DNA of 54,603 nucleotides from Thermodesulfobacteriota bacterium (GTDB lineage Bacteria; Desulfobacterota; GWC2-55-46), in NCBI GenBank assembly GCA_046757705.1, contig JBHHYT010000003.1, positions 1 through 54,603 of the forward strand, given 5' to 3'. Positions within the stretch are counted from its first letter, which is position 1. Each line of letters begins with the position of its first letter. Positions 3,124-50,486 of the stretch are shown here, one piece after another. The notes under the pieces are model-generated. The model was given only the letters and a program-made list of their open reading frames with translations, had not been told where the DNA came from and made no database searches. The position numbers and the translations under genes are program-made.

Positions 3124-4045
3124 GCTCGGGCTTCTGGCGGCGGTGTGCGTCTTGCTCGCCGGGTGCTCAGGGTTTTCGACCCTGGGCTCGTCGCTCTCTT
3201 CGCAGTTCCCGATGGTCGCCATGCAGATGGACTCGCGCTACCTGAACGGCAGCGCATATGACAGGGCCTTGCTGCTCTACGAGAAGGGGCTGCTTGTGGA
3301 GTCGAGGGAAAAGGCGCGCGCCGTGCCTAAGAACGACAAGCACTACGCGGACGCGCGCAGGCTCATAGCGGCCATCAACATCGTCGTCCTCCAGATATCC
3401 AAGGAGCACCTCGACCTCGGGGAGAAGTACGAGAAGGCGGGCATCTACGAAAAGGCGCTCTCCGAGTACAGGAGGTCTCTCGAGTACAACCCCGCGAACC
3501 TCAAGGCGAGCAGCCGCGTATACGTCTTGAACGAGATGATAAAGGCCGGCCGGCAGCCCGATATCGCTCGGGTGAACCTCGTGGAGAAGAAGGACGCGAA
3601 GAAGAAGGTGAAAAGGGAGAAGGCCGCCAGGGAGACGAAGGCCTTGAAGAAGAAGGAGAGGCCGCGGGAGGAGGACCCCGGGTACAAGGCCAGCGTGCAC
3701 TACGCCAACGGAAAGATCTACCTCGACGCCGGGGCCTACGCGAAGGCGTCCGAGGAGTTCAACCTCGCCCTCAGGTTCGTCCCGTCCTACTCCGACGCCG
3801 AGGAGCTGCTCGCGCTCTCCGAGAAGGAGAGGGACAAGGCGGTGGGAAAACACCTGAGGAAGGGCATCGGGTACTTCCAGGCCGAGGAGATGGAGCTTGC
3901 CATAAAGGAGTGGGAGATCGTTCTCCGGCACGACCCGGAGAACAAGACCGCGAAGGACTACAAGGCCAGGGCGGAGATAATACTCGAGAGGCTCAGGAAC
4001 ATCCGCAAGCAGCAGGCTGGCAGGCTCATGGGCCAGCCGCTGTAG
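3080..4045 (+). CDS. Tetratricopeptide-repeat lipoprotein
   Basis: Lipobox LLAGC and several TPR helices (LGEKYEKAGIYEKALSEYRRSLEYNP; AIKEWEIVLRHDPEN); overlaps the cyclase 3' end; start uncertain. Confidence 0.8.
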   Translation: MKLSENWKEKGLYLKLGLLAAVCVLLAGCSGFSTLGSSLSSQFPMVAMQMDSRYLNGSAYDRALLLYEKGLLVESREKARAVPKNDKHYADARRLIAAINIVVLQISKEHLDLGEKYEKAGIYEKALSEYRRSLEYNPANLKASSRVYVLNEMIKAGRQPDIARVNLVEKKDAKKKVKREKAARETKALKKKERPREEDPGYKASVHYANGKIYLDAGAYAKASEEFNLALRFVPSYSDAEELLALSEKERDKAVGKHLRKGIGYFQAEEMELAIKEWEIVLRHDPENKTAKDYKARAEIILERLRNIRKQQAGRLMGQPL

Positions 4046-9959: not shown

Positions 9960-11357
9960 ATGGAGCTGAAGGTCAGTGAAATAGCGGAGGCCCTGAAGAG
10001 GGCCGGCAGGGGCGGCAGGCTCATCCGCGGCGGGGACGCCGTGGCGGGGGGCGTTGTCACCGATTCGAGGAAGGAGTGCAGGGGCGCGGTCTTCTTCGCC
10101 CTCAGGGGCCCCAACTTCGACGGGCACAGGTTCATAGCCGACGCCTTCGCACGGGGGGCCGTAGCCGCGGTCGTGGATGAGAAGGGCGCGGCGGCGCAAC
10201 CCGCCTGCGCGGCGATAATCGAGGTGGACGACACGCTATCGGCCCTCGGGTCGCTTGCCGCCTTTGTCAGGCGGGGCTTTGCCGGGCCGGTCGTGGCCGT
10301 AAGCGGGAGCGCGGGCAAGACCACGACCAAGGACATGACGGCCTCGATACTCGGCAGGTCGAGAAAGGTCCTGAAGACCGAGGGCAACAGGAATAACCTC
10401 ATAGGGCTGCCGCTTACGCTCTTCGGGCTCGACGGCAGCCACGGGGCGGCGGTCGTGGAGCTGGGCATAAGCGAGCCGGGGGAGATGGAGAGGCTCGCGG
10501 CGATAGCGAGGCCCGACGTGGCGCTCATAACCAACATAGGCCGGGGGCACCTCGAGGGGCTCGGCTCCCTCGAAGGCGTTGCGAGGGCAAAGGCCCCGCT
10601 GTTCGGCTGCCTCGAGGAGAAGGGCGTCATGGTGGTGAACCTCGACGACCCCTGGGTGGTGAGCATAGCCGGTACAATGCGTAACGCCGTCACCTACAGC
10701 CTCAAGGGGGCCGCGGACGTGAGGGTCAGGAGGTGCACCGAGGCCGGGCTTGCCGGCACCACCGTCACCTACGTGGTCAGGGGCAGGGACGTAACCGTAA
10801 GGCTTTCAGCCCCGGGCCTTGTGAACGTGATGAACGGCGTGGCGGCCATAGCGGCCTCGCTGCCGCTCGGCGCCGGGGAAAAGGACGTGGAAGAGGGGCT
10901 CGGCTCGTTCGTCCCGGCAAAGGGGCGCATGGAGGTCATAAGGGCCGGGGGGGCAGGGGGGGTCGCGGTCCTCGATGACACATACAACGCCAACCCCGAG
11001 TCCGTGGCGGCCGCCCTCGATACCCTGAGGAAGGCCGGGGGGCGGAAGGTGGCGGTGCTCGGGGACATGCTGGAGCTCGGCCCCTCGTCGAGGGACGAGC
11101 ACAGGGAGGCGGGCAGGCTCGCCGGCACCCTCGGCATAGAGGTGGTGGTGGCCGTGGGCTCTTACGCGGCCGACCTCCTCGAAGGCGCGGCGAGCGCCGG
11201 GGCCAGAGAGGTCTACGGTTTCAACAGCAGGGAAGAGGCGGCTGCCGCCCTCGGCGGCCTTATAAAGCGGGGGGACACCGTGCTTGTAAAGGGCTCGCGG
11301 GCGGTGGGGCTGGAGTATATTACCGATTGGCTCAAGACGGAGTTCGAGAAGGCCTGA
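9960..11357 (+). CDS. murF: UDP-MurNAc-tripeptide D-Ala-D-Ala ligase
   Basis: C-terminal part of ORF 8358..11357 from ATG 9960; [33 protein letters not shown] and VKGSR. Confidence 0.96.
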
Positions 11358-11433
11358 TGGGGCCTTGCTCGAACAGGCCGCGCGAGGGCGGATATTCAAC
11401 CTTTTTTTCTCCCGCAAGGGAAGGCCGGACCAG

Positions 11434-12504
11434 ATGCTCTATTATTTTTTATATCCGCTCGCGAAGCACCATACGATATTCAACGTATTCCAGTACATCA
11501 GCTTCAGGACCATCTACGCCGCGGTCACCGCGCTGGTCCTGAGCTTCCTCATAGGACCGATGCTGATAGAGAAGCTCAGGGCCCTGAACATGGGAGAGGT
11601 GATAAGGACGGACGGCCCCGCCACGCACTCCGTGAAGGCGGGCACGCCCACGATGGGCGGGGCGATAATACTGCTGGTGGTGATAGTATCCGTGCTCCTG
11701 TGGGGCAACCTCCAGAACTCGTACATCTGGCTGATGACGTTCGTTACCGTCGGAATGGGGCTGATAGGGTTTCTCGACGACTACAGCAAGGTGGTGAGGA
11801 AGAAGGGCGGGATGAGGGCGGTCACCAAGTTCTCCGCGCAGGTGGCCGTGGCGCTCGTCGCCGTGCTCTTCCTCTACTACACGGGCTTCGAGACGGTGGT
11901 GGCGATACCGTTCTTCAAGGAGGCCGCCATAGACCTCAAGGTCCTCTACATCCCGTTCGCGATCTTCGTGATAGTGGGGACGTCGAACGCGGTGAACCTC
12001 ACCGACGGGCTCGACGGCCTTGCCATAGGGCCGATGACCATAGCCGCGGCGACGTACATGCTCTTCGCGTACCTCGCCGGGCATATAAAGATGGCCACGT
12101 ACCTGCACATCATGCACGTGGCGCCTGCCGGGGAGCTTGCGGTATTCGCCGGGGCGATGGTCGGGGCGAGCCTCGGCTTTCTCTGGTTCAACACCTACCC
12201 GGCGCAGGTCTTCATGGGGGACGTAGGCTCGCTGTCGCTCGGGGGGGCGCTCGGCACGCTGGCCGTGATAACCAAGAACGAAGTGATACTGCTCGTCGTG
12301 GGCGGCATCTTCGTGGTCGAGGCGCTCTCGGTCATATTCCAGGTGGGCTCTTTCAAGCTCACCGGCAAGAGGGTCTTCGCCATGGCGCCCATCCACCACC
12401 ACTACGAGCTCAAGGGGTGGGCGGAGCCGAAGATAATAGTAAGGTTCTGGATCATAGCCATAATACTGGCGCTTATCGCCATAAGCACGCTCAAGATAAG
12501 GTAG
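11434..12504 (+). CDS. mraY: Phospho-MurNAc-pentapeptide transferase
   Basis: [28 protein letters not shown] and MAPIHHHYE; multi-TM. Confidence 0.97.
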
Positions 12505-23317: not shown

Positions 23318-25030
23318 GTGCACGGTATCAGCTGGAAGCTTAAAAAGAAGGTGAGGGATACCCTCTCGAAGGAGAAGGGTACGGTCTACAAGGAGCACGG
23401 CGGCAGGGTAAGGGTCTGCCTCGTCTACCCGAACAGCTATTCGCTCGGCATGACCAACCTCGGCTTTCAGTCGGTCTACCACATGCTCAACTCCCTTGAC
23501 GGGTGCGTCTGCGAGAGGGCGTTCATGCCCGGCAAGGAGGATCTGGGGGAGTACGGGAGGACGTCCACCCCCCTGTTCTCCTACGAGACGCAGACCCCGG
23601 TAAAGGACTTTGACATAATAGCCTTCTCCGTGCCGTTCGAGGACGACTACGTCAACGTGCCGCGCATCCTCGAGCTTGCGGGCGTGCCTATTCTCTCCGT
23701 GGACAGGGCCTGCGCGCCGCTCGTTATGGCCGGCGGGGTGGCCGTCTCCCTGAACCCGGAGCCGGTGGCGGACTTCTTCGACCTCTTCATCGTGGGCGAG
23801 GGGGAGGGGGCCCTGGCCCCGGTGATCGACGCCTTCCGGGACGCGCGCGGCCACGGGCCTGGAGGGCAGGGGATATTAAGGGAGCTTGACCGGTTGGAGT
23901 GGGTCTACGTCCCTTCCTTTTACGTCTTTTCCTACGACGGGGTACGGATAACCCGGATAGAGGCGCTGCCGGGCGTGAAGAAGAGGGTGAGGGCCGCCAA
24001 GCTCCTCGACCTCGGGGCGTACCCGCTCCCTGAGAACTTCATACTGACCCCCGCCAGCGAGTTCAAGGACACCTCTCTTGTAGAGATAGAGCGGGGCTGC
24101 CCGCGCGGGTGCAGGTTCTGCGCCGCGGGCTTCCTCTACCTCCCTCCCAGATGGAGGGACTTCGGCGCCGTAAAGGACGCGGTCGGAAAGGGCGTGGAGG
24201 CCACGGGAAAGGTCGGCCTCGTGGGCACGGCGGTATCGGAGTACCCGGAGATAAAGCAGACGCTCTCGCTCGGCGTGGAGATGGGCGGGGCGGTAACGCT
24301 CTCATCGCTGCGCCTCGACAGGCTCGATGCCGGGTTCGTGGAGCTCCTTAAAAAGGGCGGCTACAGGACGGTCACCCTCGCCCCGGAGGCGGGCAGCGAG
24401 CGCATGAGGTGGGCCGTTAACAAGGGCATGACCGACGGGGAGATACTCGACGCCGTAAGGCTCATAACCGCCGCCGGCTTCCTCAAGATAAAGCTCTACT
24501 TCATCGTGGGCCTTCCCGCAGAGGTGGACGCCGACGCCGAGGCCATCGTCGCCCTCTCCAAAAGGATAAAGGCGGAGATGAAAAAGGGCTCGCTCACACT
24601 CAGCGTGAACCCCTTCATCCCGAAGCCGTGCACCCCCTTCCAGTGGCACCCCTTCGAGAGGGAGCAGGTCGTGGACAGGAGGCTCTCGATAGTGGAGAAG
24701 GGGCTCTCGAAGATCAAAGGGGTAAGCGTAAAGACGCTCTCGGCGCGCGAGGCGTTCGTTCAGGCGTACATATCGAGGGCCGACCGCCGGGCGGGCCGCT
24801 TCATAGCCGAGGCCGCCGAGAAGGGCTGGAGGCGCGTCATAAAGGAGAATTTGTCATTTTTCGAGGGGTCGGTCTACTCGGAGAGGGGCAGGGACGAGCC
24901 CCTTGCTTGGGATATGATAGACCACGGCGTAAGGAAGGGATATCTCTGGAAGGAGCATCAGAGGGGGGCGCGGGGCGAGCTTACGCCGCCGTGTGATGTG
25001 GGCAGGTGTTTCCGTTGCGGCGTCTGTTAG
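23318..25030 (+). CDS. Radical SAM protein related to the TIGR03960 family (putative B12-binding)
   Basis: RGCPRGCRFC (CxxxCxxC), YPNSYSLGMTNLG, TLAPEAGSER and a C-terminal CxxxxCxxCGVC. Confidence 0.9.
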   Translation: MHGISWKLKKKVRDTLSKEKGTVYKEHGGRVRVCLVYPNSYSLGMTNLGFQSVYHMLNSLDGCVCERAFMPGKEDLGEYGRTSTPLFSYETQTPVKDFDIIAFSVPFEDDYVNVPRILELAGVPILSVDRACAPLVMAGGVAVSLNPEPVADFFDLFIVGEGEGALAPVIDAFRDARGHGPGGQGILRELDRLEWVYVPSFYVFSYDGVRITRIEALPGVKKRVRAAKLLDLGAYPLPENFILTPASEFKDTSLVEIERGCPRGCRFCAAGFLYLPPRWRDFGAVKDAVGKGVEATGKVGLVGTAVSEYPEIKQTLSLGVEMGGAVTLSSLRLDRLDAGFVELLKKGGYRTVTLAPEAGSERMRWAVNKGMTDGEILDAVRLITAAGFLKIKLYFIVGLPAEVDADAEAIVALSKRIKAEMKKGSLTLSVNPFIPKPCTPFQWHPFEREQVVDRRLSIVEKGLSKIKGVSVKTLSAREAFVQAYISRADRRAGRFIAEAAEKGWRRVIKENLSFFEGSVYSERGRDEPLAWDMIDHGVRKGYLWKEHQRGARGELTPPCDVGRCFRCGVC

Positions 25031-25039
25031 AGCTACGGA

Positions 25040-25264
25040 GCGCCGGGACCGCACATACCTTTGTTGCTCCCCGTCGCGGCGCTGCGGCGTACCGGAGAGT
25101 ACGCCTCGCTCCGAGCCTTCGTCGCGCCTCGGTCTGTTTTGTTCGGGCGCTCCTCGGCGTATGGAGGGGTTTGGGCGGCGCCGGGACCGCACATACCTTT
25201 GTTGCTTCCCGTCGCGGCGCTGCGGCGTACCGGAGAGTACGCCTCGCTCCGAGCCTTCGTCGCG
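25040..25264 (+). repeat. 87-bp direct repeat, two copies (25040-25126 and 25178-25264)
   Basis: The copies differ at a single base (gctcccc vs gcttccc) and each contains the hairpin GGCGTAC-cggaga-GTACGCC. Confidence 0.92.
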
Positions 25265-25272
25265 GCGCTTAA

Positions 25273-25310
25273 ACCCTCCCCCTCGATGGGGGAGGGCAGG
25301 GTGGGGGTGA
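25273..25310. repeat. REP-like palindrome CCCTCCCC...GGGGAGGG followed by a G-rich tail
   Basis: ccctccccctcgatgggggagggcagggtggggg; relatives at 35229-35250 and 54556-54595. Confidence 0.6.
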
Positions 25311-25346
25311 ATTGAAGGATCAACCGTTATCAAGGGATTTAGCGAT

Positions 25347-27644
25347 ATGAGCGGCACTATCGACATCAAGGACTATCTGCCTCTGGTAAGGAGGCCTTCG
25401 CGGTACATCGGCGGGGAGGTGAACTCCGTGAAGAAGGACCTCTCGAAGGTGGCCCTTACCTTCGGCCTCGGTTTTCCCGACGCCTACGAGGTCGGCATGA
25501 GCCACCTCGGCATGCAGATACTCTACCAGATACTCAACGCGCGCGAGGATATAGCCTGCGAGCGCGTCTTCGCCCCGTGGAAGGACATGGAGGCGCTCCT
25601 GCGCTCCAAGGGCGTGCCGCTTGCGACGCTGGAGAGCGGCATACCTCTGAACAGGCTCGGCATAATGGGCTTCTCGCTCCAGTACGAGCTATCCTTTACC
25701 AACATCCTCAACATGCTCGACCTCGGCGGAATCCCGCTTCTGGCGAAGGACAGGGCGCAAGGGGACCCGCTGGTCCTCGGCGGCGGCCCGTCGGCCTTTA
25801 ACCCGGAGCCGGTGGCGGACTTCTTCGACGCCTTCCTCCTCGGTGACGGAGAGGAGGCCGTTGTCGAGATAGCCCGTGCGGTCATCGAGGGCAGAAAAAA
25901 CGGCGTGCGCAGGGAGGACATCCTGAAGAGGCTCGCCGGGATAGAGGGGGTCTACGTGCCTTCGTTCTTCGACGTCCTCTACAACCCGGACGGCACCGTA
26001 AGGGAGATACGCCCGCTTGTCGAGGGCTACGGGAAGATAACGAAGAGGGTCGCCCCGGACATAGACGACCTGCCGCTGCCGGCCAGGCCGGTGGTGCCCT
26101 TCATGGAGACGATACACGACAGGGTGAGCGTGGAGATAGCTCGCGGGTGCACGCGCGGGTGCAGGTTCTGCCAGGCGGGCTCCATCTACCGCCCGGTCAG
26201 GGAGAGGGCGCCCGGCAAGGTCCTCAGGATCATCGAGGAGGCGCTCGCGAACACCGGCTACGACGAGGTCTCCCTGCTCTCGCTCTCTACCGGGGACTAT
26301 ACGCTCATAGAAGAGCTTATCTGCGCCCTGATGAGCAGGCTCGACCCGGGCAGGGTGGCGCTCTCGCTGCCGTCGCTTCGCGTGGGCACGTTGAGCGCGC
26401 GCCTCGCCAACGAGATAAACAGGGTCAGGAAGACCGGGTTCACGCTCGCCCCGGAGGCCGGGAGCGAGCGCCTCAGAAGGCTCATAAACAAGGGCATAAA
26501 GGAGCAAGACCTCCACGCCTCGGCCCACGACGTCTTCTCGCTCGGCTGGAAGCTGATGAAGCTGTACTTCATGATAGGCCTTCCCACGGAGACCGACGCC
26601 GACGTGGAGGCGATAGCGGAGCTTGCCGGGTGCGTGCGCCGCATAGGCAGGCAGGCCTCCGGGAGGAACCCGCAGATAAACATAAGCGTCGCCTCCTTCA
26701 TACCCAAGCCCTACACCCCGTTCCAGTGGGAGCCGCAGATGCCCGTGGACGAGTGCAGGAGAAAGCAGGGGGTGCTCCGCAAGAGGCTTTCGTCCATGAA
26801 GCTCGGCTTCAAGTGGCACGACCCGGAGATGAGCTTCCTGGAGGGGGTCTTCGCCCGCGGGGACAGGCGGCTGTCCGTGGCCTTGCTCAAGGCGTTCGAG
26901 GCCGGGTGCAGGTTCGACGGCTGGAGCGAGGAGTTCTCCTACCCGGCGTGGCGCTCGGTGCTCGGGCAGGCCGGGCTCGACCCGGAGTTCTATACGACCC
27001 GGCGCCGCCCATTCGACGAGGTCCTGCCGTGGGACCACCTCGCGCCGGGCGTTACCAAGGAGTTCCTCAGGAAAGAGTATGAAAACGCCATCGAGCTTGC
27101 CGGGACGCCTGACTGCAAGGTGGGCAAGTGCACCAGCTGCGGCGTGTGCGACCACAGGGTGGTCAAGAACAGGACGGTGGAGGACGACGGGTCCATGGTG
27201 CCTGTCGATGGGCCGCCCGCCGCGCCGGCCGCGCCGTTGGAAGCCGGGGCCTACAGGGTGGCACTGCGGTTCTCGAAGACCGGGGACCTGAAGTACCTGA
27301 GCCACCTCGAGCTCATACGCGCCATGATAAGGGCCGTAAGGAGGGCTGGCCTTCCCATACGGTACTCTCGGGGCTTCCACCCCATGCCCAGGATATCCTT
27401 CGCCTCCACGCTGCCGGTGGGCATGGAGTCGCTCGACGAGCTGATGTTCATCGAGCTCGAACCCGCGGGGGGGCGCATCGGGCCTGACGAGATAACCGAA
27501 AGGCTCAACGCCGCGCTCCCCGAAGGGCTTAAATGCCTCGGGGGGGGGCGTGATACCCTTGAAACTTTCCAATCCCTCTGTTATTATGTCAGAGTATATA
27601 TTGTTTTTGAAAGGCAACCCTCTCGGGTTAGATATAGATATTAA
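25347..27644 (+). CDS. TIGR03960-family radical SAM fused to a TIGR03936/DUF2344 domain, frameshifted at G9 (27540-27548)
   Basis: RPSRYIGGE, FPDAYEVGMSHLG and RGCTRGCRFCQAG, then KYLSHLE...YSRGFHPMPRISF...GMES (DUF2344); the frame runs into an aberrant tail after the G tract. Confidence 0.9.
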   Translation: MSGTIDIKDYLPLVRRPSRYIGGEVNSVKKDLSKVALTFGLGFPDAYEVGMSHLGMQILYQILNAREDIACERVFAPWKDMEALLRSKGVPLATLESGIPLNRLGIMGFSLQYELSFTNILNMLDLGGIPLLAKDRAQGDPLVLGGGPSAFNPEPVADFFDAFLLGDGEEAVVEIARAVIEGRKNGVRREDILKRLAGIEGVYVPSFFDVLYNPDGTVREIRPLVEGYGKITKRVAPDIDDLPLPARPVVPFMETIHDRVSVEIARGCTRGCRFCQAGSIYRPVRERAPGKVLRIIEEALANTGYDEVSLLSLSTGDYTLIEELICALMSRLDPGRVALSLPSLRVGTLSARLANEINRVRKTGFTLAPEAGSERLRRLINKGIKEQDLHASAHDVFSLGWKLMKLYFMIGLPTETDADVEAIAELAGCVRRIGRQASGRNPQINISVASFIPKPYTPFQWEPQMPVDECRRKQGVLRKRLSSMKLGFKWHDPEMSFLEGVFARGDRRLSVALLKAFEAGCRFDGWSEEFSYPAWRSVLGQAGLDPEFYTTRRRPFDEVLPWDHLAPGVTKEFLRKEYENAIELAGTPDCKVGKCTSCGVCDHRVVKNRTVEDDGSMVPVDGPPAAPAAPLEAGAYRVALRFSKTGDLKYLSHLELIRAMIRAVRRAGLPIRYSRGFHPMPRISFASTLPVGMESLDELMFIELEPAGGRIGPDEITERLNAALPEGLKCLGGGRDTLETFQSLCYYVRVYIVFERQPSRVRYRY

Positions 27645-38023: not shown

Positions 38024-38311
38024 ACGAAAAGTTAAGTTATTTTTTGTATCTTCCAACCTGCTGGATTACAAGGGGTTATTCGCCCTTCTCCCTTCACGTC
38101 CCTTCGCCTCCCTTAAAAAGCGGTTGTATTTTTTCGCGTTTTGTGGTATTTCAAGATAACACTTGGAATACGGTCGTTTTATGGGGGCCTTCCATAACAT
38201 CTCGATTCGTAAGGGTTTTTTGCTTCCAGAGGCTCAGGGAGGGCATCCGGGGGCATGAGGCTAAGACCGCCTCTGTACCGATTGAATCCTATTGGTATTG
38301 GAGGTTTTTTT

Positions 38312-39922
38312 TTGCAAAAAAACAGGACATGCATAGAGCCCACAGGCATCAGCGACGGCATGGAGAAGAGGATCAAAACCGTTACGACCGGGTCGTTGGA
38401 TTTGACCGGGTGGCGGGCTTTTCAGGAGGGGCTCTCGGGACTTCTTGGCATACCCGTCTCTCTGTATGACAGCGGCGCAAACCTGCTCGCCGCCTCGGCG
38501 GGCACGGACGCGCTCTGCCGCGCGGTGCAGTCCCACGTCGAGGGCGGGCCGCTGTGCGCCAGGACCTACGCCAACGCCGTCGCCCAGGTCATCGAGCGCG
38601 GCAAGACCTACATATACAAATGCCACATCAACAAGTATATCTTCGCCGTGCCGGTGGACGTCTCCCCCGGCCTTTCGGTCGTCGTCGTCGGCGGGCAGGC
38701 GTACCTTTCGGGAAACGAGCGGGAGCAGTACATAAGCGGCATGGCGCACCTCGGCCTTGACGAGTCCTCCGTGGCAAGCCTCGGGCAGGCTCTCAGGACC
38801 ATACCGCCCAAGTCAGTATTCACCCTGCCGACCATAATAAAAAACCTCTCGGCCCCGCTGCTCAAGTGCATATACAACCACACCGGGCCCGTACCCGGGC
38901 AGAAGGAGGGCGGGGGCGAAAGCCAGCTCAACATACTCGACCAGGTCTACAGGTCGATAGCCCCGGTGCTCGACAGGGAAGAGCTCTACGAGGCGATACT
39001 CGCCAAGTCATCGGAGCTCGTGGACGCTGACCGCGGCTCGCTTATGATACTCGACAACAAGAACGACGTCCTTTCGATAAAGGCCTCCAAGGGCATAGAC
39101 CCGAGGATAATAGACAGCCTCCGGGTAAGGGTCGGGGAGGGGATATCCGGGGCCATAGTGGCAAAGGGGCTGCCCGTTATCGTAAAGGACATAGAGAGCG
39201 AGGTGCCTTCGTGGACGAACAGGCCGCTCTACAAGACCAAGAGCTTCCTTTCGGTGCCGCTCAAGCTCGACGAAAGGGTCATAGGCGTAATAAACGTATC
39301 GGACAAGTCCACGGGCGCCTCCTTCTCCGACCACGACATGGAGCTGCTGCTCTCCTTCGCCAGCTTCGCGTCCATCGCCCTGGAGAGGGGCGCCTACTAC
39401 TCCATGAGCGAAGAGCTCAAGATGCTCTCCATGACGGACCCCCTTACGGGCCTGTTCAACAGGAGGTACCTGCGCGAGAGGCTCTACGAGGAGGTCGAGC
39501 GCGTAAAGAGGCACAGCGAGTGCTTCAGCACCTTCCTCATAGACATAGACAACTTCAAGAGCTTCAACGACAGGTTCGGCCACAGCGCGGGAGATGAGAT
39601 ATTGAAGGGGATATCGCACACCATAAGGGACGCGGTAAGGTCCATGGACGTGGTGGCCCGCTACGGGGGCGAGGAGTTCGCCGTGATACTGCCGCACACC
39701 GGCAAGAGGGACGCATCCATCATCGCCGAGAGGATACGCGAGGACGTGGAGGAGTACAGGCGCATGGTAAAGCCGTTCAAGGAATGGCCCACCATAAGCC
39801 TCGGGGTGGCGGAGTTCCCCAACGACGCAAACGATATAGACGAGCTGATAAACAAGGCCGACAGCGCGATGTACCACGCCAAGAGGACCGGCAAGAACAA
39901 GGTGGTGGTCTATGAAGGATAG
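38312..39922 (+). CDS. PocR-GAF-GGDEF diguanylate cyclase
   Basis: PocR-like Cys pattern (LCRAV...LC...YKCH...FAVPV...GGQ), GAF (SFLSVPL...IGVINV), TDPLTGLFNRR, RSMD I-site and GGEEF; start TTG 38312 (after GGAGG) or ATG 38360. Confidence 0.92.
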   Translation: MQKNRTCIEPTGISDGMEKRIKTVTTGSLDLTGWRAFQEGLSGLLGIPVSLYDSGANLLAASAGTDALCRAVQSHVEGGPLCARTYANAVAQVIERGKTYIYKCHINKYIFAVPVDVSPGLSVVVVGGQAYLSGNEREQYISGMAHLGLDESSVASLGQALRTIPPKSVFTLPTIIKNLSAPLLKCIYNHTGPVPGQKEGGGESQLNILDQVYRSIAPVLDREELYEAILAKSSELVDADRGSLMILDNKNDVLSIKASKGIDPRIIDSLRVRVGEGISGAIVAKGLPVIVKDIESEVPSWTNRPLYKTKSFLSVPLKLDERVIGVINVSDKSTGASFSDHDMELLLSFASFASIALERGAYYSMSEELKMLSMTDPLTGLFNRRYLRERLYEEVERVKRHSECFSTFLIDIDNFKSFNDRFGHSAGDEILKGISHTIRDAVRSMDVVARYGGEEFAVILPHTGKRDASIIAERIREDVEEYRRMVKPFKEWPTISLGVAEFPNDANDIDELINKADSAMYHAKRTGKNKVVVYEG

Positions 39923-42194
39923 GTTCCTGTTCAGCGTCTGTCCCGAGAACGAGTTCTTCGACAGGACGGGCGAGATAGAGTACATACTCGCCAGGGCCGG
40001 CGGGGACGCGCGTCCGCCCGGCCTATTCCTTTCCGGCGGCAGGTGGACCGGCAAGACCGAGATATTGCGCAGGGCCCACGCGAGCCTCTTCTGGGACCAG
40101 GCCCGGGTGCTCCCGGTCTACTACCAGTTCAGGGACTACGGCGCGGCCGAGGGGCTTGTAGACGACTACCTCAAAGAGGTGCTCAAACAGTTCCTCGCCT
40201 TCGGAAGGCGCGAGCCCGCCCTCGTCGGGCAGGACCTGACCCTGGGCAGGCTGGAGGAGATGCTCGCATGCGAGGGCCTCGACATGGCCGGGCCCATATC
40301 CATCCACAGGGACGCCCGGAAGGCCGGCGACATCATATCCGGCTTAAGGAACGTGGCCGGGCTGCCGAAGTGTATAACTGAACAGGCAGGTATTCCGGTA
40401 TACCTCATGCTCGACGACCTCGACGAGGGCGCGTCCATGCTTGCCGGATACGGCCCGGGGGCCGCCGGGGAGTTCATGGAAGCCTTCGGGCGCGGCGGGG
40501 TCCCGTTCGTGGCCTCCGGCTCCACGAAGGACGTGCTCGACAGCGGCGTGCTCGGCTCCGTGGAGCCGCTCCGCCTGCGCGGGCTCGAGCCCTCCGAGGC
40601 GGGCTCCATGATGATGGAGCTGTGCCGCCAGTACGACGTGGGGTTCGACTCCGAGGTCCTCTCGTTCGCCGCCGGGAAGCTCGAGGGCAACCCGATGTAC
40701 ATGAAAAACATCGTCTGGGCGGCCCGGAGGGCGTCCACCGGCTTTCTTACACTAAAAGATTTCATTGACCTCTATGCAAAAGAGCTTTTTGATGGTAATA
40801 TTGGCCTGGCCCTGCGCTCGTCCATCCGCCTGCGCGGGCTCGCGGAGCTAAAGGCGCTCCACGCCATCACCTCCGGCGGGACCTCTGAAGAGGCGCTCTC
40901 CGAGAGGTTCGGCCTGCCGGCCGGGCAGCTGCGCCAGACCCTCAAGGACCTCTGCGCCGAGGGGCTCGTGGACGCCGCCCTCGGCTCCGTAAGGTGGGCC
41001 GGCGACGGGGTCGCGCGCGACTTCGTAAGGTTCAATTACGAGACCCGCGTAAGGGGCAGGGACGCCGACGAGGTGCGCACCTTCATGGTAAGGGACGGCC
41101 TCAAGGAGGGCTTCGACCTCAAGGGCGCCGTCGTAAGGGGAAGGCTCAAGGAAGAGACCGCCTCGCTCCTCTCCCTATTCAACGGGCAGAAGGTCTTGAA
41201 GGTGCTCCTCGACAACCGTTCCTTCTGCGCGCGGTATCCCTCCGGCGCGGAAGGGGGCCACGGGGGCCACGGGGATCAAGGGGGCCAGGGGGGCCAGGGA
41301 GATGCGGGCCACGAGGGGCAGGGGGTACAGGCAGGGCAGGGGGTGCAGGGCTCCGCTGCGGACGAGTTGACGCTGCCGCAGATAATCGGTTGCTTCGACT
41401 CCACGGTCTGGGAGAAGAACGAGACGGGGCCGCCCGTTATAATAGCCAACGGTTTTGAGAACAACAGGTACGATGCCGGCAACGAGGTGGTCTGGGTGGC
41501 CGCCGTGAAGGACTCGCTCACCCCGGTCAACATAGGGGACGTGGAGAACTTCCTGAGGCGGGGCCAGATACTGAGGCAGAACTTCAGGACCACGCGCGTC
41601 TTCAAGTGGTTCGTGGGCAGGGAGGGCTTCACGCTCGAGGCGCGCAAAAGGCTCGATGCCGAGGGTGTCTTCTCCTCCGACCAGGAGCAGGTACGGGTCC
41701 TGCGGGACAGCCTCGAGGACAGGGAGGCCGCCGGGCCGCCGGGCACCGGCAACGTCGCCCCGAACAAGGAGTTCGAGGTGGTGCTCCCCGCCTCCACCAA
41801 GGCGGAGCTCGTGGCGGCGCGCGCCGTCGAGGAGATAGGCACCGAGATGGGCTTCGACGAGATAGCCATCGGCCAGATAAAGGCGGCCCTCATCGAGGCG
41901 TGCATAAACGCCTTCGAGCACAGCAAGGCCAAGGCGACCAAGGTCTTCCTGAGGTTCGTCTCCGGGGGTGGCAGGCTCGTTATCCATGTCCAGAACGGAG
42001 GGGTGGACTTCGACAGGGCCCCGGGCAGGGCCGTGACCGCCGCCGAGAGCGGGGAGCTCAGGAAACGCGGCTGGGGCCTCGAGCTCATGAAGGGGCTGAT
42101 GGACGAGGTCAGGTTCGAGAAGATACGCGGCGGCACCAAGGTCGTCATGGTCAAATATCTGATAAAAGGAGACAACAGGGATGAACAGGCATAA
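39912..42194 (+). CDS. P-loop ATPase (archaeal/STAND-like) fused to a C-terminal RsbW-type anti-sigma Ser kinase (HATPase_c_2)
   Basis: FFDRTGE, Walker A GGRWTGKT, Walker B LMLDD and GNP motif; C-terminal EACINAFEH, RGWGLELMKGLMDEV and GTKV. Confidence 0.8.
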   Translation: MKDRFLFSVCPENEFFDRTGEIEYILARAGGDARPPGLFLSGGRWTGKTEILRRAHASLFWDQARVLPVYYQFRDYGAAEGLVDDYLKEVLKQFLAFGRREPALVGQDLTLGRLEEMLACEGLDMAGPISIHRDARKAGDIISGLRNVAGLPKCITEQAGIPVYLMLDDLDEGASMLAGYGPGAAGEFMEAFGRGGVPFVASGSTKDVLDSGVLGSVEPLRLRGLEPSEAGSMMMELCRQYDVGFDSEVLSFAAGKLEGNPMYMKNIVWAARRASTGFLTLKDFIDLYAKELFDGNIGLALRSSIRLRGLAELKALHAITSGGTSEEALSERFGLPAGQLRQTLKDLCAEGLVDAALGSVRWAGDGVARDFVRFNYETRVRGRDADEVRTFMVRDGLKEGFDLKGAVVRGRLKEETASLLSLFNGQKVLKVLLDNRSFCARYPSGAEGGHGGHGDQGGQGGQGDAGHEGQGVQAGQGVQGSAADELTLPQIIGCFDSTVWEKNETGPPVIIANGFENNRYDAGNEVVWVAAVKDSLTPVNIGDVENFLRRGQILRQNFRTTRVFKWFVGREGFTLEARKRLDAEGVFSSDQEQVRVLRDSLEDREAAGPPGTGNVAPNKEFEVVLPASTKAELVAARAVEEIGTEMGFDEIAIGQIKAALIEACINAFEHSKAKATKVFLRFVSGGGRLVIHVQNGGVDFDRAPGRAVTAAESGELRKRGWGLELMKGLMDEVRFEKIRGGTKVVMVKYLIKGDNRDEQA

Positions 42195-46663: not shown

Positions 46664-47696
46664 GGTTTCGAGCAAAAAGCTTTTGTGCAAGGCCGTAAGG
46701 CCAGTCGAGATAAAGGAAGGGGCGGGTGTCGAGGACCTCGTAAGGAGGATGGGCTCGACCGCCTTTCAGGGCAGGAACCTCTCGACCGCCGTGGACGTGT
46801 GGGAGCGGATGCTCAAGACCCGCACCACGGTCTTTTTCGGCCTTGCCGGGGCGATGGTGCCCGCGGGCATGCGCGAGCTGCTCGTGTACCTCATAAAGAA
46901 CCGCTTCATCGACTGCCTCGTCTCCACCGGCGCGAACCTCTTCCACGACATACACGAGGAGCTCGGGCGCGTGCACTGGCAGGGCAGCCACCACATGGAC
47001 GACAACCTCTTGAAGGATATGGGCATAGACCGCATATACGACGTCTTCGCCCTCGAAGAGGAGTTCAACGAGGCCGACAGATATATATTCGAGTTCGCCG
47101 AGGGGTTGGACGAGCGCCCATACACCACACGCGAGTTCCTCTCGCTTATGGGCAGGGACCTGGCCCGCAGGGGCAAGGCCGAGGGCGTCGTCAGCGCCGC
47201 GTTCAAGGCCGGCGTGCCTATATACTGCCCGGCGGTGGCCGACTCCTCCATAGGCATAGCCCTGGCGCTCAAGGACGGCCCCGGCCACTTCATCTTCGAT
47301 ATGATAGGCGACGTCAAGGAGACCGCCGAGATAGCCGCCCGCGCGCGGAACACCGGGGTCGTATACGTCGGCGGGGGAACGCCCAAGAACTTCATACAGC
47401 AGACCGAGGTCACGGCGGCGCTCCAGTGCAAGGACGTGAAAGGCCACAAGTACGCGGTGCAGATTACGGCGGACGCGCCCCACTGGGGGGGCCTTAGCGG
47501 GTGCACCTTCGAGGAGGCGCAGTCGTGGGGCAAGATAGCGAAGAAGTCGAGTCACGTGACCGTAAGCTCGGACGCGACCATAGCTTTACCCATCATAGTC
47601 ACCGCGCTGGCCGAAAGGATGAAGGGCAAGAAGAGGCAGGCCCCCGGGATGGACCTGAGCAGGTCCAACAAGGTGGCCAGGCGGATATGGGAGTGA
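46653..47696 (+). CDS. Deoxyhypusine synthase-like protein (probable homospermidine synthase, SpeY-like)
   Basis: STGANLFHD, DSSIG, GGGTPKNF and GGLSGCTFEEAQSWGK with the catalytic Lys. Confidence 0.9.
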   Translation: MADKVSSKKLLCKAVRPVEIKEGAGVEDLVRRMGSTAFQGRNLSTAVDVWERMLKTRTTVFFGLAGAMVPAGMRELLVYLIKNRFIDCLVSTGANLFHDIHEELGRVHWQGSHHMDDNLLKDMGIDRIYDVFALEEEFNEADRYIFEFAEGLDERPYTTREFLSLMGRDLARRGKAEGVVSAAFKAGVPIYCPAVADSSIGIALALKDGPGHFIFDMIGDVKETAEIAARARNTGVVYVGGGTPKNFIQQTEVTAALQCKDVKGHKYAVQITADAPHWGGLSGCTFEEAQSWGKIAKKSSHVTVSSDATIALPIIVTALAERMKGKKRQAPGMDLSRSNKVARRIWE

Positions 47697-48637
47697 GCAA
47701 AAGGGGCCTTGCGGTCGAAGGCATACTCAACTTCTGCGGCCTTTCAAGGGAGGAGCTCGAAGCCCATCCGCCTACCTTCTCCGTCCTGCCCGTGCCCTAC
47801 GACCTGACCGCCTCCTACGTCAGCGGTACGAGGAACGGCCCGAGGGCCATCATAGAGGCCTTCACCCACATGGAGCTCTACGACGACGAGCTCGGCCGCG
47901 AGGTCTGGGAGGCGGGCATAGAGACGCTGCCCTCGATGGAGCCAACGGCGCTCGGCCCCGGGGAGATGGTCGACAGGGTCCACGCCGCCGCCGACGAGAT
48001 ACTCGACGCCGGCAGGGTCCCGGTGATGCTCGGCGGTGAGCACAGCGTCACCCTCGGTCTCGTCAGGTCGCTCATAAAGAGATACCCCAAGATGTCGGTC
48101 CTCCAGCTCGATGCGCACGCGGACATGAGGGACTCCTATCAGGACACGCCCTTCAACCACGCCTGCATCGCCAGAAGGATCTCCGAGATATGCCCCATAG
48201 TCCAGGTCGGCATAAGGAGCCTGAGCACCGAAGAGGCCGTCTTCCTCGACTCGCAGAAGAAGGCGGGCCGCAGGGCCGCTACAAGGATAAAGACATGGTA
48301 CGCCGCCGAGGTGCTCAAGGGCGTGGACTGGTCCCGCGTGGTCAGGGGGCTTACGGACGAGGTCTTCATAACCGTCGACCTCGACGTCTTCGACCCGGCC
48401 GTAATGCCAGCCACAGGCACACCCGAGCCCGGGGGGCTCGGGTGGTACGACGCGCTCGGGGTGCTGCGCTCGGCCGCCGCCGGCAGGAAGGTCGTCGGCT
48501 TTGACGTCGTCGAGCTGTGCCCGCTGCCGGGCAACATAGCGCCGGACTTCCTCGCGGCGAAGCTCGTCTACAAGATGATGGGCTACGCTACCGAGGGCCG
48601 CGCCGGACGGTCCGCGCGCGGGCCACGCAAGAGGTAA
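47687..48637 (+). CDS. speB: Agmatinase
   Basis: GGEHS, DAHAD, DLDVFDP, GTPEPGG and DVVE. Confidence 0.92.
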   Translation: MGVSKRGLAVEGILNFCGLSREELEAHPPTFSVLPVPYDLTASYVSGTRNGPRAIIEAFTHMELYDDELGREVWEAGIETLPSMEPTALGPGEMVDRVHAAADEILDAGRVPVMLGGEHSVTLGLVRSLIKRYPKMSVLQLDAHADMRDSYQDTPFNHACIARRISEICPIVQVGIRSLSTEEAVFLDSQKKAGRRAATRIKTWYAAEVLKGVDWSRVVRGLTDEVFITVDLDVFDPAVMPATGTPEPGGLGWYDALGVLRSAAAGRKVVGFDVVELCPLPGNIAPDFLAAKLVYKMMGYATEGRAGRSARGPRKR

Positions 48638-48838
48638 GGCCCTCAGCGCAGGGGGCGGGTTTCCCGGGGCGGGCTCCTTCCGGGGGTATGGGGGGCAGTG
48701 GGCAGTGGGCAGGGGGCACGGGGGGGTGCGGGGGGCGGGTACGGTCTTTTCAGGGGTGGTTTTCCGGGGTGGTGTTCTTCAGATTTGTCTGCCCGAGTAC
48801 GGCATTCAACAATAAAAGTAAAAACCGGGGGTAATGAA

Positions 48839-49384
48839 ATGTTTGTACCTAAAAGGGTCTTTTTCACAAAAGGGGTGGGTACCCACAAAGAGGAGCTGAC
48901 CTCCTTTGAGCTGGCGCTCAGGGACGCTAACATAGAGAAGTTCAATCTCGTTCAGGTCTCGAGCATATTCCCTCCCTCATGCAAGGTCATCTCAAAGGCG
49001 GTGGGGTTGAAGAAGCTCGCCCCCGGACAGGTCGTCTTCTGCGTCATGAGCAAGCTTTCGAGCAACGAGCCGAGGCGCCTTATGGCCGCCTCCGTCGGGT
49101 GCGCCATCCCCATGGACAGGAAGCTCTACGGGTATCTGAGCGAGCACCACGCCTACGGCCAGACCGACGCCGCCGCCGGGGACTACGCCGAGGACCTCGC
49201 CGCGGCCATGCTCGCATCCACCCTCGGCATAGAGCTCGACGAGGACCTCGGCTGGGACGAGAAAAAGGAGATATACCGCATAAGCGACAAGATAGTAAAG
49301 ACCACCAACGTGACGCAGTCCGCGATAGTCAAGGGCGACGGCAAGTTCACCACCATAGTCGCCGCCGCGGTAATGGTACTCTGA
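48839..49384 (+). CDS. pdaD: Pyruvoyl-dependent arginine decarboxylase
   Basis: [19 protein letters not shown] (Ser-Ser autocleavage site) and GYLSEHH. Confidence 0.92.
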
Positions 49385-49454
49385 GGGGACGCGCGCCCCT
49401 CCGGGCGCGATGCCGGCCCTCTCGCGGCCCGGGCGCAACCGGTGGGATCAAGCC

Positions 49455-50486
49455 ATGAAGATAGGTCTTACATACAACCTCAAGAAGCAAGGAGCGCAAG
49501 GGGGCACGCCCTCCGGCTTTTGCGCCGGGAGCGGCGGGCTGGACGCCATAGAGGCGGTGCGCGATGCCCTTCTCGAACGCCACGCCTCGGTAGAGATGAT
49601 AGAGGCCGACGAGGACGCCTACGAAAAGCTCAGGGCCTCCCGCCCCACTATGGTCCTCAACATGGCCGAAGGGCTCCGGGGGCAGAGCAGGGAGTCGCAG
49701 ATGCCCGCTATCATGGAGATGCTCCGCATCCCGTACACCGGCTCATCCCCCCTTGCCCTCTCGCTGTGCCTCAACAAGGCGCGCGCGAAGGAGATGCTCG
49801 CCCACTACGGCATACCGACCGCGAGGTTCCTCGTCGCGCAGAGAGGGGACGCCGGCATCGAGCGTTTTCTGGCCTTCCCCATGGTGGTAAAGCCGCTCTG
49901 CGAGGGTTCGGGCAGGGGGGTAGGGGACGACTCCATCGTGCGCGGCCCGGAAGAGCTCAGGCGCAGGGTGGACAGGGTGGTCGGCGAGTACGGCCAGCCG
50001 GCGCTCGTCGAGGAGTACCTCGAGGGCAGGGAGTTCACGGTGGCGCTTCTCGGCAACGGCGAGAGCACGAGGACGCTGCCGATAGTCGAGATAAACTACT
50101 CGGCCCTGCCAGAGGGCGTAAACCCCATATACTCCAACGAGACCAGGTCTGTCCTCCACGGCCCGGGAGCGCCGCCAGACGGATTCACCTGCCCTGCCGG
50201 CGTCAACGACAGGCTCGGCTCGGCCATAGAGACGGTGGCGAAGGACGCGTTCAGGGCGCTGGAGGTGAGGGACTGGTGCAGGATAGACGTAAGGCTTGAC
50301 GCCGCCGGGGTGCCGCACGTGATAGAGCTCGACCCGCTGCCCGGCATACCGATGGCCCCGAACGCCGACTCGTGTTTTTCCATGGCCGCCCGCGCCGCTG
50401 GCATGAGCCGCGGCGACCTGGTCAACGGTGTTGTGGACATAGCCCTTGAAAGGTACGGGATATCCCCCTCGGACAGGCCGAACTGA
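49455..50486 (+). CDS. Ddl-like ATP-grasp protein, divergent
   Basis: IPYTGS, LNKARAK, VKPLCEGS, EEYLEGREF and RIDVR; ELDPLPG stands in place of ExNxxPG. Confidence 0.82.
   Translation: MKIGLTYNLKKQGAQGGTPSGFCAGSGGLDAIEAVRDALLERHASVEMIEADEDAYEKLRASRPTMVLNMAEGLRGQSRESQMPAIMEMLRIPYTGSSPLALSLCLNKARAKEMLAHYGIPTARFLVAQRGDAGIERFLAFPMVVKPLCEGSGRGVGDDSIVRGPEELRRRVDRVVGEYGQPALVEEYLEGREFTVALLGNGESTRTLPIVEINYSALPEGVNPIYSNETRSVLHGPGAPPDGFTCPAGVNDRLGSAIETVAKDAFRALEVRDWCRIDVRLDAAGVPHVIELDPLPGIPMAPNADSCFSMAARAAGMSRGDLVNGVVDIALERYGISPSDRPN

Follow-up and report, generated by a model that had tools for sequence, protein, structure and literature searches.

A P-loop NTPase joined through a nuclease-like fold to an RsbW-like domain: a candidate partner switch encoded with c-di-GMP turnover genes in Thermodesulfobacteriota

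We analyzed a window of 54,603 nucleotides from a Thermodesulfobacteriota bacterium (assembly GCA_046757705.1, contig JBHHYT010000003.1, positions 1 to 54,603). The open reading frame 39912..42194 on its plus strand encodes a protein of 760 residues, which comprises four parts: a P-loop nucleoside triphosphatase (NTPase), a winged helix, a PD-(D/E)xK fold and an RsbW-like GHKL domain. Four closely spaced genes follow each other in the order GGDEF, fusion, STAS, HD-GYP. The fusion and STAS genes share a fixed operon with the gene of a GAF-HD-GYP phosphodiesterase, in most cases joined by one for a PocR-GAF-GGDEF cyclase. We propose that the fusion protein would be the sensor and kinase subunit of a partner switch without a sigma factor or a dedicated phosphatase, with the turnover of cyclic di-GMP (c-di-GMP) as its output, and we give this proposal about an even chance of being correct. 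The coordinates of all features are collected in Table 1.

Conservation of the cassette was assessed at 80 loci from a scan of species-representative genomes, in which the neighbors of the window gene were searched by tblastn and contig ends were allowed for. At the 44 close loci (L001–L044), counting those with room on the contig, the STAS gene lies downstream in 42/42, the HD-GYP gene downstream in 39/39 and the GGDEF gene upstream in 32/37 cases. The five close loci without the upstream GGDEF gene are four Brocadiaceae loci and L040. For 23 distant multidomain relatives (~25–35% identity), which include metagenome-assembled genomes (MAGs) of Rokubacteria, Pyrinomonadaceae, Gemmatimonadota and Nitrospiraceae, the STAS gene was found downstream at 13/22 loci and the GGDEF gene upstream at 2/8; all counts for this group are lower bounds, since the tblastn query is far from these sequences. 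A further 13 loci contain only a small stand-alone RsbW-like gene. The STAS gene follows it in 9/13 cases, and at no locus was there room for the GGDEF gene. Because the HD-GYP gene lies downstream at 15/22 loci even among the distant multidomain relatives, versus 0/12 beside the stand-alone RsbW-like genes, the HD-GYP linkage is specific to the NTPase-fused form. It persists to ~25% identity. In the initial annotation of the fusion this conserved operon, the main context of the gene, had been missed. The cassette is hosted by uncultured Thermodesulfobacteriota/'Deltaproteobacteria', Brocadiaceae, Acidobacteriota, Gemmatimonadota, Nitrospiraceae and Rokubacteria MAGs.

The fusion gene itself is widespread but patchy. 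A HMMER scan with residues 1–612 returned 317 clusters at E ≤ 0.001, of which 171 remain at ≤ 1e-10 and 32 at ≤ 1e-30, with lengths near 710–790 and 540–600 residues. Many of these clusters carry the kinase domain, so that the word 'unusual', which the initial annotation had used for the fusion, was an overstatement. In 24 of 48 relatives of 500–660 residues, HATPase_c_2 directly follows the NTPase and winged helix, and the nuclease fold is absent.

Every motif that the initial annotation had listed for the open reading frame is present in the translation. These are FFDRTGE (residues 15–21), the Walker A motif GGRWTGKT (residues 42–49, fitting GxxxxGKT), the Walker B motif YLMLDDLD (residues 164–171, type hhhhDD), GNP (residues 259–261), a helix-turn-helix-like stretch (residues 325–353) and the run VWVAAVK ... 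WFVGREGFTLEA (residues 527–577). A word-indexed search gave 43 homologous clusters, in which full-length members have ~730–750 residues and 44–69% identity. In an alignment of 40 full-length homologs Trp45, Gly47, Lys48, Thr49, Asp168, Asp169, Asn260, Pro261, Glu525, Trp528, Lys533 and Gly572 are invariant, and Gly42 is conserved in at least 90% of the sequences. Since their key positions are invariant in 40 homologs, the quoted motifs are conserved features and do not occur by chance. The start codon is consistent with the N-termini of the homologs in the same alignment; it overlaps the stop codon of the upstream gene and is preceded by a Shine-Dalgarno-like AAGGTGG. The alignment was also used to build an AlphaFold model of the whole protein with a mean predicted local distance difference test (pLDDT) score of 78.4.

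Residues 1–420 are a P-loop NTPase with a winged helix, related to ATPase_2, Orc/Cdc6 and STAND proteins. A Foldseek search of the PDB with the full model yielded archaeal Cdc6/Orc1 (2qby_A, E 4.6e-10), the archaeal AAA+ ATPase SSO1545 (2fna_A, E 6.4e-10, template modeling (TM) score by target 0.57) and the Walker-type ATPase PABY2304 (2qen, E 8.9e-9, TM score by target 0.60). The N-terminal alignments cover ~400–450 columns. Orc/Cdc6 and ATPase_2 proteins rank above CED-4 (2a5y_B, E 4.1e-7), Apaf-1 (3shf) and NRC4 (9cc8_A), which fall within about 4e-7 to 2e-6, CED-4 and Apaf-1 near 5e-7. A fold with P-loop core, helical lid and winged helix is thereby supported for the model. Among the 40 family members, AAA_16 (PF13191) matches 39 and ATPase_2 (PF01637) 30 at E ≤ 0.1 (best 9.8e-8 and 4.2e-8, respectively), and NACHT matches one (E 0.024). 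A repeat domain is not present in the protein.

For a comparison by profile we used 11 ATPase_2+DUF234 proteins of ~460–500 residues from genomes of the same phylum. Residues 14–363 are collinear with them according to hhalign (probability 73.9%, E 2.9e-5, 275 columns). The matching columns comprise FxNR, the P-loop (GRRRVGKT), Walker B, which reads DE in those proteins and DD in the window protein, GGxPxY, which corresponds to GNPMY, and the winged helix. DSSP assigned to the winged helix of the full model three helices (residues 310–320, 326–333 and 337–349) and two strands (residues 353–356 and 359–362). Family members show weak matches to GntR, MarR and TFIIE_alpha in Pfam, the profile weakly matches the PDB entries 2d1h and 6cmv, and the region lies inside the Cdc6/Orc1 alignments from Foldseek. 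The P-loop module of archaeal ATPase_2- or STAND-like type and the winged helix, both suggested in the initial annotation, are thus borne out, the former by Foldseek, Pfam on the family and hhalign, the latter by DSSP, Pfam on family members and Foldseek. The protein satisfies the patterns GxxxxGK[ST] and hhhhD[DE]. A Walker B motif of type hhhhDD is usual in STAND NTPases, and we therefore rejected the idea, also put forward in that annotation, that the second aspartate is an anomaly. One full-length distant relative (L048, a Pyrinomonadaceae MAG, match 10001–12211) has SAGVSE and no GK[ST] at the Walker A position; its NTPase may be degenerate.

The middle domain was modeled separately (residues 412–612, 37 sequences), which resulted in a pLDDT of 86.4 and a predicted TM score of 0.79. 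Its N-terminal helices (residues 412–441) are joined across a linker to a β-β-β-α-β core (residues 484–606). We compared this model with 48,161 representative chains by VIA-align. The top row was AF1548 (1y88_A) with Z = 10.6 and a root-mean-square deviation of 2.6 Å for 110 aligned residues, followed at Z = 8.0–8.5 by Can2, N.BspD6I, NucS, the R.BspD6I small subunit, AspBHI and MspJI, and then by FokI, LlaBIII and Card1. Counted on the whole model, Z ≥ 8 is reached by six chains; after realignment the first seven rows lie at Z ≥ 8.0, and all of them are nucleases or nuclease-like folds. A best Z of 7–8 is common in such searches, but 1y88_A exceeds it, and the high rows are almost without exception PD-(D/E)xK folds. 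Foldseek with the domain model gave no match at E ≤ 0.001. Its weak top rows are nearly all nucleases; the best are MspJI, Cdn1, AspBHI and EndoMS, with E-values from 2e-3 to 2e-2 (best 2.4e-3). In independent agreement, structural neighbors in the Atlas are Mrr_cat and DUF234 domains as well as proteins of ~565 residues with ATPase_2, a helix-turn-helix and Mrr_cat. Taking the two programs together, the nuclease domains of Can2, Cap4, Avs3 and MspJI are among the structural neighbors. The domain is accordingly modeled with an α-β-β-β-α-β PD-(D/E)xK fold, a point that VIA-align settled. The initial annotation had anticipated a restriction-endonuclease-like (REase) fold here and had named Foldseek and profile searches as the check; P-loop and REase-fold matches were both obtained.

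Sequence models are silent on this domain. Pfam assigned no family to residues 412–612 in any of the 37 sequences except for two chance-level rows, the domain profile gave only chance matches to PDB sequences (a de novo TIM barrel and a glucanotransferase), and a search of the window's genome with PF03008 (DUF234) gave no match. No sequence-model match to PF03008 or to PF04471 (Mrr_cat) was obtained for the domain, and the link to these families is by profile-profile alignment only. In this alignment, hhalign matched the domain profile with the last 175 residues of the DUF234 proteins (probability 72.6%, E 3.2e-5, 70 columns). Steczkiewicz et al. (2012, PMC3424549) count DUF234 among the PD-(D/E)XK families and give an AAA+ ATPase as the domain to which it is joined.

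The alignment pairs EVVWVAAVK with ETIYFGEVK of DUF234. The glutamate of the ExK motif corresponds to Ala531, the lysine is kept as Lys533, and GFT aligns with GFS. The initial annotation had read the loss of the glutamate from AVK. Across the family, in the alignments of 40 and of 37 sequences, the position two before Lys533 is alanine, glycine or serine. DUF234 proteins carry an invariant E-I-D in the strand preceding ExK. In strand β2 of the window protein (residues 509–515, ending with the invariant Gly514 and Phe515) no conserved acidic residue was seen when the alignments were read by eye. In a distant subfamily the motif reads D-V-T, which means that the lysine is the residue lost there. 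With both the catalytic aspartate and the catalytic glutamate missing, the fold is predicted to be catalytically disabled. Among 24 relatives without kinase domain (500–660 residues, found via the N-terminal region) nine keep D...(D/E/Q)x(K/R) and GF(T/S), as judged by eye, and Mrr_cat matches two of the 48 relatives of this length in Pfam. This residue pattern in the relatives fits an ATPase-nuclease scaffold that was taken over and whose active site may have decayed, which is in line with the domestication suggested in the initial annotation.

The linker of the middle domain has a pLDDT below 50 in the full model. It is lacking in the 39 other homologs of the 40-sequence set and in 35 of the 36 others of the 37-sequence set, where L040 has its own, different long insert. 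The encoding DNA consists of tandem repeats at 41251–41350 (period 9 with 4.9 copies, period 27 with two copies, and a second 9-nucleotide array) and suggests that repeats have recently expanded in a linker that tolerates them.

The C-terminal domain is related to RsbW. Pfam assigned residues 635–748 to HATPase_c_2 (PF13581, E 6.2e-18, 65.5 bits with the cut-off at 27.4), and the same family was found in all 40 family members. The family profile matched Bacillus subtilis RsbW (6m36_A, E 7.2e-17) and SpoIIAB (1til_A, E 1.6e-7) in the PDB, and Foldseek superposed the domain on 6m37_C with a TM score of 0.89 by target. The scores for the NCBIfam equivalogs stay below their cut-offs (RsbW, NF003144, 46.8 bits versus 145; TIGR01925, 28.3 versus 135). 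The N-box (EACINAFEH, with Glu662, Asn666 and His670) and the G2 box (RGWG) are kept and essentially invariant. The GHKL box set is incomplete at G1, where the invariant Asn695 aligns with the aspartate of RsbW (ADEG) and SpoIIAB (RDEG). The 81 kinase domains collected from the loci have asparagine at G1 in 49 cases, aspartate in 28 and serine in four; aspartate is confined to the distant multidomain subfamily and the small stand-alone RsbW-like proteins. The search with the N-terminal 612 residues supplied 148 relatives, 93 of which allowed the G1 column to be placed (asparagine in 60, serine in 30, aspartate in two and alanine in one).

In a preprint on the structure of VanS (10.1101/2022.12.12.520123), the G1 aspartate is described as normally forming a salt bridge with the adenine amine. 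Asparagine at this position is rare, yet it is found in the active kinases VanS and ThkA, of which VanS binds ATP weakly (10.1101/2022.12.12.520123). The same text cites Scaramozzino 2009 for a reported GTP preference of one Asn-G1 kinase. From the sequence, serine kinase activity of the RsbW-like domain is plausible but not safe. Of the RsbW-like serine kinase named in the initial annotation, the domain therefore stands, while the kinase does not stand securely in view of Asn695 and of a PP2C phosphatase that was not found. Seven relatives of ~530–560 residues (P0110, P0120, P0125, P0128, P0162, P0163 and P0168) have a C-terminal domain still similar to the beginning of the RsbW-like domain (ELVA..LEQIA). 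The asparagine and histidine of the N-box are missing from it as judged by eye, and Pfam finds no HATPase_c_2 there; these relatives may represent a further-decayed pseudokinase form.

The junctions within the cassette are tight. The GGDEF and fusion genes overlap by 11 nucleotides, the fusion and STAS genes by 14 nucleotides, both with Shine-Dalgarno-like sequences, and the fusion gene is translationally coupled to the STAS gene. A terminator-like hairpin follows secF (38146–38171), and a promoter-like site lies ahead of recJ (43999). No sigma-factor gene is present in the cassette. Ser57 of the STAS protein aligns with residue 58 of SpoIIAA (chain 1th8_B), which we take to be the phosphorylated serine. 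In an alignment of 44 STAS sequences, half of them displayed, Asn56, Gly59 and Ser61 are invariant and Ser57 is conserved in at least 90%, with one threonine. The HD and HHExxDGxGYP residues of the HD-GYP protein are invariant in 44 sequences.

We searched for further partners in the window's genome, which has 2.30 Mb and is 97.7% complete. It contains no match to the PP2C-type phosphatase models SpoIIE (PF07228), PP2C_2 (PF13672) and PP2C (PF00481). The fusion gene is its sole clear RsbW-type HATPase_c_2 match (69.6 bits); a second match, in a frame of 476 residues, barely exceeds the cut-off (27.8 versus 27.4 bits). The STAS neighbor is the only small STAS protein of the genome. Several sigma-70-family genes exist, none of which is above the SigBFG cut-off (best 141 bits versus 234). 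SpoIIE (PF07228) was detected in one of five genomes of relatives with asparagine and in one of five with aspartate at G1, ten genomes of unknown completeness. The lack of the phosphatase thus seems general across the relatives and independent of the G1 residue, and a relation between the G1 residue and the presence of SpoIIE was rejected. PADLOC gave no match for the fusion protein and only chance-level rows for the HD-GYP and STAS proteins.

Based on the domain structure and the gene neighborhood we propose the following mechanism. The P-loop module would act as a nucleotide-dependent switch, like its Orc/Cdc6, ATPase_2 and STAND relatives. On a signal, binding or hydrolysis of the nucleotide at the P-loop would shift its conformation or oligomeric state. 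The presumably dead nuclease fold would serve as a scaffold and relay this change to the RsbW-like domain, which would then bind the STAS protein and probably phosphorylate Ser57. In the last step the free or modified STAS protein would bind the HD-GYP enzyme, perhaps also the cyclase, and in this way set the local c-di-GMP level. A precedent is known from Pseudomonas aeruginosa, where the STAS protein HsbA binds the diguanylate cyclase HsbD (PMC5085249). A complex of the HD-GYP and STAS proteins was predicted from alignments of 44 rows each and scored 0.58, versus 0.00 for the best of three controls, which was graded 'weak support'. At least 94% of the contacts are common to the runs, and the pLDDT of the partner is at least 83. 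In a benchmark, 116 of 157 solved complexes and two of 215 mismatched pairs attained the mark; at scores up to 0.60 it was attained by only 18 of the 157 solved complexes and by both passing mismatches. These counts hold only roughly here, as custom alignments were used.

Several observations weigh against the proposed partner switch. Neighborhood indicates functional linkage, not who binds whom, and the complex prediction, which is weak and gives no interface, is a small addition to it. Among the distant multidomain loci with room, tblastn detected no STAS gene in 9/22 and no HD-GYP gene in 7/22. The distribution is patchy, with a match at E ≤ 1e-10 in 10 of 201 genomes of a phylum sample and in one of four of the same order. 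The window protein itself stays below the Pfam cut-off for AAA_16 (17.2 bits versus 32.6) and has no ATPase_2 entry at E ≤ 0.1. Asn695 leaves an ATP-dependent kinase activity uncertain, and a phosphorylation cycle that lacks a PP2C phosphatase would have no known way of being reset.

The last two points lead to the main rival explanation, a pseudokinase, which we consider unlikely. The RsbW-like domain would not transfer phosphate in this case; it would hold the STAS protein stoichiometrically and free it upon a change in the NTPase, and the freed STAS protein would act on the HD-GYP or GGDEF enzyme. Replacement of the G1 aspartate in 91 of the 93 relatives with a locatable N-box, asparagine or serine in 53 of the 81 kinase domains, the phosphatase missing from the genome search, and some relatives of ~540 residues that seem by eye to have no N-box are all consistent with this. 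Invariance of the N-box and G2 box, however, argues for binding of nucleotide and Mg, the phosphorylatable serine or threonine of the STAS protein is conserved, and the histidine kinases VanS and ThkA are active with asparagine at G1 (10.1101/2022.12.12.520123). A more speculative version of the partner switch, to which we attach little probability, is that asparagine or serine at G1 retunes the pocket away from ATP, possibly to GTP as reported for one histidine kinase with this substitution. In that case the guanine-nucleotide pool, or c-di-GMP itself, would be what the module senses, with no phosphatase involved and with the NTPase loading the STAS protein on the HD-GYP enzyme and unloading it. 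If true, it would be a self-contained c-di-GMP feedback controller of a previously undescribed kind.

Two other explanations are less likely than the pseudokinase. Homology of the domain to RsbW and SpoIIAB, together with the several sigma-70-family genes (best 141 bits to the SigBFG model), would allow it to sequester a sigma factor encoded elsewhere, with the STAS protein as antagonist and the c-di-GMP genes merely co-regulated. HsbA of P. aeruginosa is described as both an anti-anti-sigma factor and the partner of HsbD (PMC5085249). Such a classical anti-sigma factor is nevertheless improbable in our view, as the cassette has no sigma gene, no sigma factor of the genome exceeds the SigBFG cut-off, the score for the RsbW equivalog is far under its threshold, and the HD-GYP link reaches down to ~25% identity and is absent beside the small RsbW-like genes. 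We give hardly any credence to an active conflict or defense system, that is, a triggered ATPase-nuclease which cuts nucleic acid and has the kinase domain as its regulator. The parent architecture is an ATPase_2 protein fused to a REase-like domain, and the nuclease domains of Can2, Cap4, Avs3 and MspJI are structural neighbors. But the glutamate position of ExK is alanine, glycine or serine, strand β2 shows by eye no conserved acidic residue, the distant subfamily has lost the lysine instead, and PADLOC is without a match. The gene also lies between secDF and recJ in a core region whose flanking synteny recurs in related MAGs. In view of this and of the PADLOC result, the 'conflict-type' label that the initial annotation gave to the scaffold is at most tentative.

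Among known systems, ATPase_2 (PF01637) proteins with DUF234 (PF03008) or Mrr_cat (PF04471), such as SSO1545 (2fna) and PABY2304 (2qen), show the same collinear FxGR, Walker A and B, G(G/N)P and winged helix. Their fold is common to residues 1–420 of the window protein, and the middle domain aligns with DUF234 from strand β3 to its end, including GF(T/S). The window protein differs in having DD instead of DE in Walker B, in the missing aspartate and glutamate of the nuclease, in the appended RsbW-like domain of 140 residues and in the signaling character of the genomic context. FFGRxxE, a Walker B motif of type hhhhDD and GxP are features of STAND NTPases, and the window family has FFGRxxE before Walker A, hhhhDD and a GxP motif. 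With STAND NTPases such as Apaf-1, CED-4, plant NLRs and bacterial Avs it further has in common the core of P-loop, helical lid and winged helix (Foldseek ~4e-7 to 2e-6). Unlike these, its top matches are Orc/Cdc6 and ATPase_2 proteins, it has no TPR, WD40 or LRR sensor repeats, and the effector is a GHKL domain.

The RsbW-RsbV and SpoIIAB-SpoIIAA pairs (6m36/6m37, 1th8, 1til) resemble the window system in the GHKL N-box and G2 box and in the overlapping STAS gene with a serine at the SpoIIAA position. In contrast to these pairs, the window protein has ~610 additional N-terminal residues and asparagine at G1, and it scores below the NCBIfam cut-off for RsbW. No sigma factor that is linked or of SigB/F/G type and no PP2C phosphatase were found for it, whereas HD-GYP and GGDEF genes are linked. 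The regulator HsbR of P. aeruginosa combines a response regulator with a PP2C phosphatase and a kinase domain, while the anti-sigma factor FlgM is a further target of HsbA. The HsbR-HsbA-HsbD system has in common with the cassette a STAS-type antagonist wired to a c-di-GMP enzyme (PMC5085249), which in our case is read from the gene neighborhood. Unlike the window cassette, HsbA sits in the HptB pathway and next to flagellar genes (same source), and unlike HsbR-HsbA-HsbD, the window system has an NTPase input, no phosphatase and an HD-GYP phosphodiesterase as its best-conserved neighbor. The histidine kinases VanS, ThkA and BA2291 of Bacillus anthracis show the same change from aspartate to asparagine at the adenine-contacting G1 position (10.1101/2022.12.12.520123). 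They are two-component histidine kinases, whereas the window domain is of RsbW type, and serine replaces asparagine in 30 of 93 relatives.

We found no description of this fusion or of the cassette in open-access papers or bioRxiv. The components are all of known kinds. Their combination is new as far as we found: an NTPase input in place of a phosphatase, an apparently disabled nuclease as connector, a substituted G1 box and an HD-GYP partner. Partner switching and c-di-GMP signaling are two main post-translational controls of bacteria with few known links between them, and the cassette, a compact and strongly conserved module of four genes, points to an undescribed control of c-di-GMP. It would depart from the textbook scheme in that an Orc/Cdc6- and STAND-like NTPase replaces the phosphatase input, a nuclease fold would have turned into a scaffold, and the likely target is an HD-GYP phosphodiesterase and not a sigma factor. 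It thus offers a testable example both of ATPase-nuclease architectures recruited to signaling and of a partner switch without a dedicated phosphatase.

Table 1. Positions of the cassette genes and of domains and motifs of the fusion protein in the window.
Feature	Position	Strand	Basis
PocR-GAF-GGDEF diguanylate cyclase, 555 residues, GGEEF and RxxD site	38255..39922	+	Pfam: GGDEF 6.6e-50, GAF_2 1.9e-20, PocR 2.3e-13
Multidomain (fusion) protein gene	39912..42194	+	Open reading frame; 43 homologous clusters; full model, mean pLDDT 78.4
P-loop NTPase domain and helical lid, ~residues 12–300	39945..40811	+	Foldseek, Pfam on family, hhalign
Walker A GGRWTGKT	40035..40058	+	GxxxxGKT; W45, G47, K48, T49 invariant in 40
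Walker B YLMLDDLD	40401..40424	+	D168, D169 invariant; aligns with DE of ATPase_2 proteins
Winged helix-turn-helix, ~residues 310–362	40839..40997	+	DSSP, weak profile matches, Cdc6/Orc1 alignments
PD-(D/E)xK fold (predicted), residues 412–606	41145..41729	+	Domain model, VIA-align, Foldseek, Atlas neighbors
Disordered Gly/His/Gln-rich linker, residues 445–483	41244..41360	+	pLDDT <50; tandem repeats
Ala531-Val532-Lys533, (D/E)xK motif position	41502..41510	+	hhalign to DUF234
RsbW/SpoIIAB-like GHKL domain, residues 618–752	41763..42167	+	Pfam, profile versus PDB, Foldseek
Asn695 codon at the G1-box Asp position	41994..41996	+	Alignment with RsbW and SpoIIAB
STAS protein, anti-sigma-antagonist type, 120 residues	42181..42543	+	Pfam: STAS, E 5.4e-13
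STAS Ser57 codon	42349-42351	+	Aligned with SpoIIAA residue 58
GAF-like and HD-GYP phosphodiesterase, 410 residues	42614..43846	+	Pfam: HD_5 2.7e-38, HD 5.8e-16, GAF_3 0.0053

The window is core chromosome and no island. Its order is the dcw cluster, RNase G, queA, tgt, yajC, secD, secF, the cassette and recJ, and the synteny of secDF and recJ around the cassette recurs in related MAGs. Another gene for a nucleotide second messenger is located at 1690–4045, where a HAMP and adenylate/guanylate cyclase gene (477 residues) is followed by an overlapping gene for a TPR protein. Two adjoining radical SAM genes, both with Radical_SAM_N2 and the second also with DUF2344, occupy 23318–27644. Downstream, at 47501–50486, an arginase/agmatinase-family gene, a pyruvoyl-dependent arginine decarboxylase gene and an ATP-grasp (D-Ala-D-Ala-ligase-like) gene form a likely polyamine cluster.

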